From NCBI RefSeq assembly GCF_048403405.1, contig NZ_CP183135.1: a stretch of 64,000 nt of DNA; one strand, written 5' to 3'. The position numbers are program-made. Positions 45,401 through 58,221 of the stretch are shown here, in pieces. Source of the DNA: Escherichia coli (GTDB lineage: Bacteria; Pseudomonadota; Gammaproteobacteria; Enterobacterales; Enterobacteriaceae). The stretch's first letter is position 1. Every line of letters starts with the position of its first letter.

Positions 45401-48400
45401 GGTGACGGGTGGTGACAATGAGTCCGTGTCGAGCGCTGATTTTTTCGGCCTTTAGAGCGAGATTTATACAATAGAATTTGGCATGAGATTGGATTGCTTT
45501 TAGTCAGCCTCTTATAGCCTAAAGTCTTTGAGTGACTAGATGACATATCATGTAAGTTGCTGATAGGTTTCCAGTTTTCCGCTCCTAGGTCTGCATATTG
45601 TACTTTTCCTCTTACTCGACTTAACCAGTACCAACCCAGCTTCTCAACGGATTTATACCATGGCACTTTAAAGCCAGCATCACTGACAATGAGCGGTGTG
45701 GTGTTACTCGGTAGAATGCTCGCAAGGTCGGCTAGAAATTGGTCATGAGCTTTCTTTGAACATTGCTCTGAAAGCGGGAACGCTTTCTCATAAAGAGTAA
45801 CAGAACGACCGTGTAGTGCGACTGAAGCTCGCAATACCATAAGTCGTTTTTGCTCACGAATATCAGACCAGTCAACAAGTACAATGGGCATCGTATTGCC
45901 CGAACAGATAAAGCTAGCATGCCAACGGTATACAGCGAGTCGCTCTTTGTGGAGGTGACGATTACCTAACAATCGGTCGATTCGTTTGATGTTATGTTTT
46001 GTTCTCGCTTTGGTTGGCAGGTTACGGCCAAGTTCGGTAAGAGTGAGAGTTTTACAGTCAAGTAATGCGTGGCAAGCCAACGTTAAGCTGTTGAGTCGTT
46101 TTAAGTGTAATTCGGGGTAATGACTCCAACTTACTGATAGTGTTTTATGTTCAGATAATGCCCGATGACCTTGTCATGCAGCTCCACCGATTTTGAGAAC
46201 GACAGTGACTTCCGTCCCAGCCTTGCCAGATGTTGTCTCAGATTCAGGTTATGCCGCTCAATTCGCTGAGTGTAACGCTTGCTGATTACGTGCAGCTTTC
46301 CCTTCAGGCGGGATTCATACAGCGGCCAGCCATCCGTCATCCATACCACGACCTCAAAGGCCGACAGCAGGCTTAGAAGACGCTCCAGTGTGGCCAGAGT
46401 GCGTTCACCGAATACGTGCGCAACAACCGTCTTCCGGAGCCTGTCATACGCGTAAAACAGCCAGCGCTGGCGCGATTTAGCCCCGACGTATCCCCACTGT
46501 TCGTCCATTTCCGCGCAGACGATGACGTCACTGCCCGGCTGTATGCGCGAGGTTACCGACTGCGGCCTGAGTTTTTTAAATGGCGGAAAATCGTGTTGAG
46601 GCCAACGCCCATAATGCGGGCGGTTGCCCGGCATCCAACGCCATTCATGGCCATATCAATGATTTTCTGGTGCGTACCGGGTTGAGAAGCGGTGTAAGTG
46701 AACTGCAGTTGCCATGTTTTACGGCAGTGAGAGCAGAGATAGCGCTGATGTCCGGCGGTGCTTTTGCCGTTACGCACCACCCCGTCAGTAGCTGAACAGG
46801 AGGGACAGCTGATAGAAACAGAAGCCACTGGAGCACCTCAAAAACACCATCATACACTAAATCAGTAAGTTGGCAGCATCACCTAATTCGGGGCAGAATT
46901 GGTAAAGAGAGTCGTGTAAAATATCGAGTTCGCACATCTTGTTGTCTGATTATTGATTTTTCGCGAAACCATTTGATCATATGACAAGATGTGTATCCAC
47001 CTTAACTTAATGATTTTTACCAAAATCATTAGGGGATTCATCAGGGTGATGCGTGCACTACGCAAAGGCCAGGCCTCAGCATTTTATTATGGTGATCCCC
47101 TGGGCGAAATGCGCCTGGTAAGCAGAGTTTTTGAAATGTAAGGCCTTTGAATAAGACAAAAGGCTGCCTCATCGCTAACTTTGCAACAGTGCCGTGCAGA
47201 CAGAAACCGTAAACACCGGCATTGACATGCCGGGGAAGCCCTTATAGTACAATAATTCTCTATATCCAAACTGACCCCGATGAGAAAAGCATGGAGACGT
47301 TGAGCACCAATCTGCAACTCGCCCGGCTGGTTGGCGTTCAGGGGACGCCGGCAACCATCATTGGCGACGAGATGATCCCCGGCGCGGTATCGTGGGAGAC
47401 CCTTGAGGCGGTGGTGAAAGAAAAACTGGCGGTGGCCCATGCTCAGTAAACTGCGCCGCTGGCTGCGTGAAGGCGCGATCTTACTGGTTGTGCTGGCTGG
47501 CGTGATAATCCTGCTGGATGTCTGGCGTTCTCCGCAGATGCCGGCCATGTTTGACAGCACGCCGCTGCATACGCTGGACGGGGAAACCGTAACGCTGGCG
47601 TCGATCAGTGAAGAACGCCCGGTGCTGCTCTACTTCTGGGCGAGCTGGTGCGGTATCTGCCGTTTCACCACGCCGGATGTCGCCCGTTTGCAGTCGGAAG
47701 GGGAGAGCGTCATGACCATCGCGCTGCGTTCCGGTAATGACGGGGAGGTTTCCCGCTGGTTATCGCGTAAAAGGGTGACGTTCCCCGTCGTGAATGATAG
47801 CGGCGGTGAGATATCACGAAACTGGGAAATCAGCGTCACGCCAACGCTGGTGGTGGTGTCGAAGGGGCAGGTGGTAACTACGACCAGCGGCTGGACCAGC
47901 TACTGGGGCATGAAGTTACGTCTGTGGCGGGCAGCCATGTTTTGATAGCGTGCCGGGGAAACCCGGCATTTTTTAACCCATTGTAAGGATGTGTAAAACG
48001 AGCGGAGAGCGTGTTTTCTGTTATTTTTGCTGCTTTTTTACCGACGCCAGTTATTATTTTTTACCGCTGCCTGATGTTGCAAACCTGAATTGATAATGGC
48101 ATATCTGTTTTAATTGAATGAAAGTCTGTGATACGTTCAGGCGATTTTTTCGATTTCCATTTTGACAGGGATAACAATTCAATGCGCAAGGGTAAAATTA
48201 TTGTTGCATCAATGATGGTGCTTTGTGTCCTTATTTTTGTTGCGGCGGCGGCATGGTTTATGCTGTTCCAGGGAGAAATGACGGAGCCGACAGAGGAGGA
48301 AAAACAGGCGGCAATTTTACACGCTGCGGGCCTGATGAAATCAGAGACCCAGGATAAAAAATCAGTCGAAACGCTCTATCATCGTTATATTATTCAACGC

Positions 48401-57400: not shown

Positions 57401-58221
57401 CTCTATGAGGATTGATAACAACAAGAGGTTGTAGGGATGAAAAAATTGATACTCGCCGCCGCTGTGGCAGGGGCTGTTTTATTGTCGTCCGCCGCGCAAG
57501 CGCAGACAACGCCGGAAGGTTATCAACTGCAACAAGTGTTGATGATGAGCCGACACAACTTGCGCGCGCCGTTGGCCAATAATGGCAGCGTGCTGGAGCA
57601 GTCCACGCCGAATCAGTGGCCGGAGTGGGATGTGCCCGGCGGGCAGCTCACCACGAAAGGCGGTGTGCTGGAAATTTATATGGGCCACTACATGCGAGAA
57701 TGGCTGGCGGAGCTGGGGATGGTCACGTCAGGCGAATGCCCGACGCCGGACACGGTATATACCTATGCCAACAGTCTGCAACGCACCGTTGCGACGGCAC
57801 AATTCTTTATCACCGGCGCTTTCCCTGGGTGCGACATTCCGGTACATCATCAGGAAAAAATGGGCACGATGGACCCAACGTTTAATCCGGTGATCACCGA
57901 TGACTCTGCGGCGTTTAGCCAGAAAGCGGTGCAGGCGATGGAAAAAGAGCGCAGCCAGATGCAGCTTGACGACAGCTATCAGCTGCTGGCGCAGATGACG
58001 GACTACAAAGATTCACCGTCCTGCAAAGAAAAACAGCAGTGTTCGCTGACCGAAGCCAAAGACGCCTTTAGGGAAGGTGCGAATAAGCAGGTCATGTCTT
58101 CCCAAGCTGACTCGTTGATTAAAATTTCGCGGATCTGGGCCGATTTTTGTCCCGCAAACACATCGAATCAGCCTATTTAGGCTATTTTTTCCACCATTTC
58201 TGGTGTTATTTCCGGTTTTTA

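Follow-up and report, generated by a model that had tools for sequence, protein, structure and literature searches.

The closest described relatives of the locus studied here are gene clusters that combine an FTR1-family iron permease with a periplasmic P19-type protein. In the fetMP-fetABCDEF cluster of Campylobacter jejuni (cj1658-1665), fetA to fetD are each needed under iron limitation and the two thioredoxins, fetE and fetF, are redundant (Richardson-Sanchez 2023, PMC10783030). Homologous clusters were found in 33 species, including Escherichia coli pVR50B and a Klebsiella pneumoniae plasmid (Liu et al. 2018, PMC6083913). In E. coli F11, iron uptake was reported to depend on FetM, with FetP assisting (Koch et al. 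2011, as summarised in PMC7285068). The cluster of the Salmonella plasmid pUO-StVR2 comprises fetM, fetP, flsD, flsA, flsB, flsC, flsT, the hypothetical gene flsE and the histidine-phosphatase gene flsF, with IS26 flanks and a putative Fur box (Garcia et al. 2020, PMC7285068). Deletion of its fetMP-flsDA portion lowered cell iron from 1516 to 281 µg/g dry weight, about five-fold, with manganese and zinc unchanged; it also made the bacteria grow and compete less well, invade HeLa cells less and replicate less in macrophages, and complementation was obtained (PMC7285068). Here we describe a locus of this kind in a 64,000-nucleotide stretch of E. coli DNA (RefSeq assembly GCF_048403405.1, contig NZ_CP183135.1), referred to below as the window. 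The segment 47195-58067 of the window is very probably a FetMP-Fls ferrous/ferric iron uptake module homologous to the C. jejuni cluster, captured in association with the insertion sequence (IS) IS26 from a Citrobacter-like chromosome and carried since as near-clonal IncF plasmid cargo. The FetMP-Fls system being already known and characterised, the segment is real, functional cargo and contributes nothing new to the system itself.

Between 47.2 and 58.2 kb, the + strand of the window holds an unbroken run of open reading frames (ORFs), in which the described genes are intact and stand in the order given by a first-pass annotation made from the sequence alone. The segment behaves as a single captured chromosomal piece, running from a 3' fragment of scsC (scsC') to the 5' half of agp (agp') in the order scsC', scsD, an NqrC-like gene, fetM, fetP, flsD, flsA, flsB, flsC, flsT, flsE and agp' (Table 1). 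Domains were assigned by Pfam and NCBIfam profile searches, and the flanking IS elements were identified by megablast. Downstream of the FTR1 and P19 genes follow, in order, a protein with DUF2318 and YHS domains, two FtsX permeases, an ATP-binding cassette (ABC) ATPase and a single thioredoxin. The first seven genes, fetM to flsT, thus share order, domains and an upstream Fur box with C. jejuni fetMP-fetABCDEF and with Yersinia pestis fetMP-flp. In contrast to C. jejuni, the window has one downstream thioredoxin and not two, an NqrC-like gene upstream and flsE downstream; published identities of the module proteins to their C. jejuni counterparts are 27-57% (PMC7285068). With respect to E. 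coli F11 and pUO-StVR2 the module is the same one, FetP being identical to that of F11 and pUO-StVR2 having been compared by its gene list. The surrounding mosaic varies from plasmid to plasmid; in the window it has Tn10, IS10 and IS1 on the left and a truncated IS5-family element, a Tn21-type repeat and IS4321 on the right. The NqrC-like gene and scsD, upstream of fetM, are drawn in PMC7285068 just as 'additional genes', and neither 'nqr' nor 'scs' occurs in its text.

The first-pass annotation had recognised a cFtr1-P19 or FetMP-type system with an accessory transporter, and the Pfam and NCBIfam matches bear this out. FetM carries two RExxE motifs, the absence of which would have spoken against an iron permease: REGLE at amino acid 389 and REGAE at amino acid 507 of the 646-amino-acid form, each in or beside a transmembrane-like segment. 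An N-terminal domain of about 380 amino acids, which we take to be periplasmic, stands behind a signal peptide, and the EfeU-like core aligns only to amino acids 387-593. A comparison of FetM with PDB sequences gave no match. The mature part of FetP (residues 26-176) agrees in every residue (100% identity) with the FetP of E. coli F11 for which crystal structures exist (PDB 3NRP/3NRQ), and the protein also matches C. jejuni P19 (PDB 3LZL) with an E value of 6.6e-59. FTR1-family permeases with RExxE motifs are likewise found in the FtrABCD systems of Brucella and Bordetella and in EfeUOB. FtrA is a P19 homologue, its structures matching FetP at E values of 1e-44 to 1e-53. FetM differs from the permeases of these systems by its additional N-terminal domain and reaches only 119 bits with the EfeU model, for which the cut-off is 255. 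The cupredoxin FtrB, EfeO and EfeB were all absent from the Pfam matches of the ten ORFs.

The accessory proteins conform to the same type. FlsD has an FtrD-like/DUF2318 domain with CLLC and CVAC motifs, transmembrane-like segments and a C-terminal YHS domain. The flsB gene is paralogous to flsA (about 30% identity, with cross-matches in tblastn), and FlsC has a GASGSGKT Walker A motif and an LSGGE signature, its best NCBIfam models being FtsE, LolD and MacB, all below their cut-offs. Judging from the FtsX and MacB_PCD architecture and from general knowledge of this ABC class, FlsABC would be a mechanotransducer of the MacB/LolCDE type and not an importer. The ratio of nonsynonymous to synonymous substitutions (dN/dS) was 0.01-0.2 across all genes of the module.

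A Fur box, TGATAATAATTATCA, lies at 49197-49211, overlapped by a promoter-like site ahead of fetM. It is a perfect box of the 7-1-7 form; no other site in the 64-kb window comes within two mismatches of that form, and each of the nine orthologous loci examined has the box with at most one mismatch. A search with the 19-bp Fur consensus allowing up to three mismatches gave no match; it was the 15-bp 7-1-7 form that located the perfect box. The predicted box and its conservation point to repression of the fet operon by Fur. The start of fetM was also considered. The RefSeq start, ATG at 49290, yields 628 amino acids and removes the hydrophobic N-terminus. Translation from GTG at 49236, preceded by GGCGG at 49224-49228, yields 646 amino acids with a signal-peptide-like N-terminus ending in VWA, and an ending of the VWA/ALA type is kept in nine of nine orthologues; the 646-amino-acid form is also the representative (P0161) of a cluster of 2494 sequences. 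The annotated start therefore probably strips a conserved signal peptide, GTG 49236 being the better fit to the orthologues.

Many E. coli IncF plasmids contain an 11.4-kb stretch with the module at 100% identity. At least 80% of this stretch is covered by 811 plasmid records, and plasmids of Klebsiella, Enterobacter, Citrobacter and Salmonella are among the matches. The core (48182-56805) was present in 840 of 5426 complete E. coli genomes, at 877 plasmid places and 9 chromosomal ones, and was at least 99% identical in 845 of 846 records, with pUTI89 among the plasmids. These figures uphold the earlier claim that the cluster is plasmid-borne, acquired cargo and no part of the E. coli core, and they make the module near-clonal cargo of IncF and related plasmids, the IncF ones being common carriers of resistance and virulence in E. 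coli. With the identity of the cluster supported, the permease motifs in place and a chromosomal core location excluded by these counts, the interpretation of the first-pass annotation is supported as well.

The probable source is suggested by Citrobacter chromosomes (the amalonaticus/farmeri group, sp. MGH106 and sp. Cu233), which share the plasmid gene order from scsD through flsE. FetM is 89-92% identical between the plasmid module and these chromosomes, and a few metagenome proteins reach 92-96%; the list of FetM homologues was confined to relatives of at least 83% identity. In Citrobacter sp. MGH106, genes for ScsC, for ScsB (DsbD-like) and of the size of scsA lie upstream of scsD. Since Citrobacter chromosomes hold the same order and so similar a FetM, capture of the module as an unbroken stretch of a Citrobacter-like chromosome is likely on these sequence comparisons, with scsC', scsD and agp' as flanking genes of the donor carried along. 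No agp gene was found next to flsE in Citrobacter, where approximately 1.5 kb of downstream sequence was available, and the exact donor was not among the sampled species. The first-pass annotation had placed the flavin mononucleotide (FMN)-binding gene and the helix-turn-helix (HTH) gene outside the canonical system; this is right with respect to the C. jejuni set, yet both genes, the NqrC-like one and flsE, occur in the Citrobacter chromosomes and therefore belong, as lineage-specific genes, to the ancestral locus that was captured.

The NqrC-like gene encodes a protein whose residues 3-245 align with Vibrio cholerae NqrC (7xk3_C, E value 5.7e-49). An N-terminal anchor (a transmembrane-like segment at amino acids 6-24) and the SGAT flavinylation site (amino acids 215-218, within DGISGATLTS) are shared with the NqrC subunit of Na+-NQR. 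The window gene differs from it in lacking nqr partners and in adjoining fetM instead. Its genomic contexts were gathered from a genome scan for which the NqrC-like protein served as seed (11 loci), to which two contexts found through more distant homologues, in Raoultella terrigena and on a Klebsiella-like chromosome, were added. In all 13 contexts, which are distributed over Citrobacter, Phytobacter, Superficieibacter, Raoultella, Klebsiella-like bacteria, Enterobacter spp. and Sodalis, the gene immediately precedes fetM, and tblastn with all window proteins placed it just upstream of the fetMP-flsDABCT cluster in all 11 scan loci. In Sodalis the cluster downstream of it is decayed, with no called genes over about 6.6 kb and then a remnant of the ABC ATPase. 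None of nqrA, nqrB, nqrD, nqrE and nqrF is a neighbour of the gene in the window or in the 13 related loci, which sets it outside an nqrABCDEF operon. The next-lower similarity is to a genuine, nqrABCDEF-encoded NqrC of Yokenella, at 43% identity. That the gene might be a remnant of an nqr operon was considered and rejected on synteny, on the intact intergenic regions and on this low identity to genuine NqrC. As no NQR operon is present and the clade was linked to fet throughout these contexts, the RefSeq name 'Na(+)-translocating NADH-quinone reductase subunit C', which comes from the equivalog NF003747, is misleading for it.

The membrane anchor and the motif DGI[ST]GAT[LM]TS are invariant in nine orthologues that diverge to 49% identity, and dN/dS values of 0.08-0.18, with dS saturated, indicate that the gene is under purifying selection. 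By these comparisons the gene is not random cargo of the segment, and a functional link to the redox step of FetMP is plausible. The 13 of 13 adjacency, the invariant flavinylation motif, the purifying selection and the separateness from operon-encoded NqrC lead us to propose, tentatively and as a possibility that we rate as rather less likely than not, that the protein is a dedicated component of the FetMP-Fls system. It would be a subunit of a respiratory complex turned into a periplasmic FMN relay with a membrane anchor, its flavin attached by the ApbE of the host. This relay might deliver electrons for the reduction of Fe3+ (or of FetP-bound Cu2+) and, as part of the same tentative proposal, might act alongside or instead of the second thioredoxin known from C. 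jejuni. Tight integration with the fet operon is argued against by the gene's own flanking intergenic regions, which hold no conserved Fur box, and by its G+C content of 48.3%, compared with 53-59% in the core; it looks like a separate transcription unit. The G+C content of flsE is similarly 49.4%, and that of the intergenic regions around the NqrC-like gene is 39%. These low values hint at a later addition to the locus. Shortened copies were also noted. Sodalis glossinidius AP008232.1 (locus L014, 10001-17860) has an NqrC-like ORF of 211 amino acids, and the lack of called genes at the expected place of fetMP-flsDAB is consistent with pseudogene decay of the whole system in this symbiont. An E. 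coli plasmid with a divergent sequence (NZ_CP172870.1, 94.6% identity) seems to have a copy of 177 amino acids (P0051).

P19/FTR1 clusters that also encode an FMN_bind protein located outside the cytosol and bearing a flavinylation motif of the ApbE type have been described before (Liu et al. 2018, PMC6083913; Meheust et al. 2021, PMC8238504). There the FMN-binding gene takes the seventh place instead of the thioredoxin, and most of these clusters belong to Gram-positive phyla. By contrast, the proteobacterial cluster of the window retains its thioredoxin; in addition, a full-length paralogue of NqrC stands upstream, seemingly in a transcription unit of its own. The portion of the text of Meheust et al. 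(PMC8238504) that was searched contains no enterobacterial P19 cluster. In the literature searched, NqrC was not found mentioned together with FetM, and plasmid papers list 'nqrC' merely under its annotation name (PMC6506616). The regular presence of an NqrC paralogue beside fet in enterobacterial loci is thus only a modest addition to a known system.

From these features the module might work as follows. When iron is scarce, Fur would leave its box and fetM-fetP-flsDABCT would be transcribed, as the box and its conservation suggest. Periplasmic FetP, a copper-containing P19 protein, would bind iron and aid the use of Fe3+ and of low Fe2+, as reported for E. coli F11, and FetM would carry Fe2+ over the inner membrane via the two RExxE motifs seen here, transport having been reported for F11. 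FlsD, with its two CxxC motifs and YHS domain, the heterodimeric FlsAB, the FlsC ATPase and FlsT would presumably back FetMP by periplasmic redox or mechanical work, without importing iron themselves; the redox chemistry would fall to FlsD and FlsT and perhaps also to the NqrC-like protein. An advantage in growth and infection would be expected when iron is limiting, as was shown for pUO-StVR2 in Salmonella. Some points weigh against this picture. The functional data come from pUO-StVR2, F11 and C. jejuni. The growth benefit on pUO-StVR2 was seen in iron-replete medium too, so that iron uptake may not be the sole function (Garcia et al., PMC7285068). Lastly, upstream of the NqrC-like gene the window and nine orthologous loci contained only scattered three-mismatch matches to the Fur box, none of them conserved, and for this reason co-regulation of that gene with fetM is not supported.

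The benefit in iron-replete medium, together with the fact that copper was not among the metals measured in that study (PMC7285068), also leaves room for a cluster devoted mainly to copper or to general periplasmic redox homeostasis, with iron uptake secondary. Such a role would suit the copper binding of P19/FetP proteins, known from their structures, the YHS domain and CxxC pairs of FlsD, the MacB/LolCDE type of FlsABC, which is no classical importer, and the linkage of scs (suppressor of copper sensitivity) genes to fet on the plasmid and in Citrobacter. This linkage is however lineage-specific, since scs is not beside fet in Raoultella, Phytobacter, Superficieibacter and Enterobacter sp. 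10-1. Moreover, the Fur box is kept in every orthologous locus examined, the phenotypes of the C. jejuni mutants depend on iron (PMC10783030), and the deletion on pUO-StVR2 lowered cell iron five-fold and left manganese and zinc unchanged (PMC7285068). We consider a mainly copper-directed module quite improbable on this evidence, and iron uptake by FetMP-Fls remains the preferred interpretation.

The mosaic setting of IS26, IS1, IS10, IS5 and IS4321 and the truncated flanking genes scsC' and agp' could alternatively suggest that the segment is inert passenger DNA, retained only for its place between mobile elements on successful plasmids, whose iron system is unexpressed or non-functional in E. 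coli; its near-clonal sequence (at least 99% identity) could then mean recent spread and not selection. This is hard to reconcile with ten internal ORFs that are all intact in hundreds of plasmids, with the transport reported for the FetMP of F11, the FetP of which is identical (Koch et al. 2011, through the summary in PMC7285068), or with the clear and complementable phenotypes of the Salmonella plasmid module (PMC7285068). An inert passenger is thus a barely credible explanation, and a functional iron uptake module accounts better for what is seen.

The last intact gene of the segment, flsE, has a narrow distribution, being found by homologue search and tblastn in Citrobacter-type loci and the plasmid module only, and its dN/dS of about 0.05 indicates purifying selection. 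An AlphaFold2 model of the protein (pLDDT 82.6, pTM 0.47) has two HTH-like three-helix units and a small C-terminal beta domain, and a Foldseek search of the PDB with this model gave no match at an E value of 0.001 or lower. On the basis of the model, FlsE may be a small DNA-binding protein.

Both ends of the segment cut through genes, as the first-pass annotation had stated for scsC and for the Agp-like phosphatase, and both flanking genes are marked partial in the RefSeq annotation of identical plasmids. On the left, the Tn10/tet(B) region stops with the outer end of its IS10 at 47044, where it abuts a truncated IS26. This IS26 fragment terminates in the IS26 terminal inverted repeat (...TTTGCAACAGTGCC) and forms the boundary of the captured segment. 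The Tn10-derived tet(B) region itself (43846-47044) ends in an IS10 copy (IS4-family transposase, 44953-46080), and it is this IS10 that an inserted IS1 (46131-46634) interrupts. The scsC remnant (47222-47449) is 87% identical to residues 152-205 of a 207-amino-acid ScsC-like protein of Citrobacter sp. MGH106. The scsABCD operon is thus incomplete in the window, where just the last approximately 56 codons of scsC remain, together with an intact copy of scsD that has a terminator-like hairpin 3' of it (47950-47969); the full set is present in a Citrobacter locus (L002). The scsD gene is probably a hitch-hiker from the scsABCD operon of the donor. It was also considered as a second thioredoxin of the iron system, which was judged unlikely, the fet loci outside Citrobacter (Phytobacter, Enterobacter sp. 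10-1, Superficieibacter and Raoultella) having no adjacent scsD.

On the right, agp' shows 81% nucleotide identity to the chromosomal agp of E. coli and covers positions 1-217 of the 413 of NF007553, scoring 391 bits against a cut-off of 425, and is accordingly not a full-length Agp (about 413 amino acids). The earlier placement of the cluster between an IS26 fragment and a transposon inverted repeat stood for the IS26 side and had to be amended for the other: an IS5-family fragment (58068-58323) truncates agp near 58067 and forms the right boundary, and the repeat starts only at 58324. A RefSeq 'hypothetical protein' of 74 amino acids (58013-58237, - strand) spans the junction of agp' with the IS5-family fragment and is almost certainly a spurious ORF made by that junction. 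The insertion of IS4321 in the inverted repeat of the Tn21 subgroup is a typical target-specific one.

Table 1. Features of the captured segment and its flanks; positions refer to the 64,000-nucleotide window.
Feature	Position	Strand	Evidence and remarks
IS26 3' fragment	47045-47194		150 bp; megablast to IS26; RefSeq 'IS6 family transposase, partial'
scsC 3' remnant (DsbA/DsbG-like)	47195-47449	+	Cut by IS26; RefSeq 'DsbA family protein, missing N-terminus'
scsD, intact membrane-anchored thioredoxin-like protein (CGIC)	47439-47945	+	Redoxin/AhpC-TSA/Thioredoxin Pfam; transmembrane-like segment
NqrC-like membrane-anchored FMN-binding protein, orphan	48182-48943	+	PF04205; NF003747, 396 bits (cut-off 336)
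fetM promoter-like site, GCGACA-18-TATCAT	49183-49212	+	Overlaps Fur box
fetM, FTR1-family permease	49236-51176	+	PF03239, 170 bits; RefSeq start 49290; mechanical ORF start 49230
fetP, periplasmic P19-family copper/iron-binding protein	51217-51744	+	PF10634, 235 bits
flsD, polytopic membrane protein (C. jejuni FetA/Cj1660 type)	51848-53227	+	PF10080, 98.6 bits; PF04945, 61.8 bits
flsA, FtsX-type permease with MacB-like periplasmic core domain	53230-54513	+	PF02687, PF12704; LolC/E and MacB sub-threshold
flsB, second FtsX-type permease	54503-55633	+	PF02687, PF12704
flsC, ABC ATPase, LolD/MacB/FtsE type	55638-56333	+	PF00005, 126 bits
flsT, periplasmic TlpA/ResA-like thiol-disulfide oxidoreductase (CGGC)	56320-56805	+	Redoxin/AhpC-TSA; ResA 4nmu, E value 5e-18
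flsE, 161-amino-acid cytoplasmic protein	56830-57315	+	Fragmentary HTH Pfam matches
agp' (flsF), glucose-1-phosphatase/histidine acid phosphatase, 5' half	57437-58067	+	RefSeq 'histidine-type phosphatase, missing C-terminus'
IS5-family (ISKpn26-like) fragment	58068-58323		Megablast ISKpn26/IS5; RefSeq 'IS5/IS1182 family transposase, partial'
Tn21-subgroup terminal inverted repeat (GGGGTCCGCTTGGAAAACGGAA ... ATTAATTATCCCACGCTAAG), split by IS4321	58324-59688		Sequence read; RefSeq
IS4321	about 58346-59668	- (transposase)	Transposase 58601-59605; NF033542, IS110 family
Tn3-family tnpA, 999 amino acids	59684-62683	-	NF033527; gene end inside inner part of split repeat

For the hosts, the module means that plasmid-bearing E. 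coli, Klebsiella and Salmonella gain an extra iron route, predicted to be Fur-regulated, on replicons that also carry resistance genes. The presence of an iron module and of resistance on one replicon links virulence or fitness to resistance, as was argued earlier for pUO-StVR2 (PMC7285068). The pairing of the NqrC-like gene with fetM may in addition offer a handle on the redox step of P19/FTR1 iron transport.

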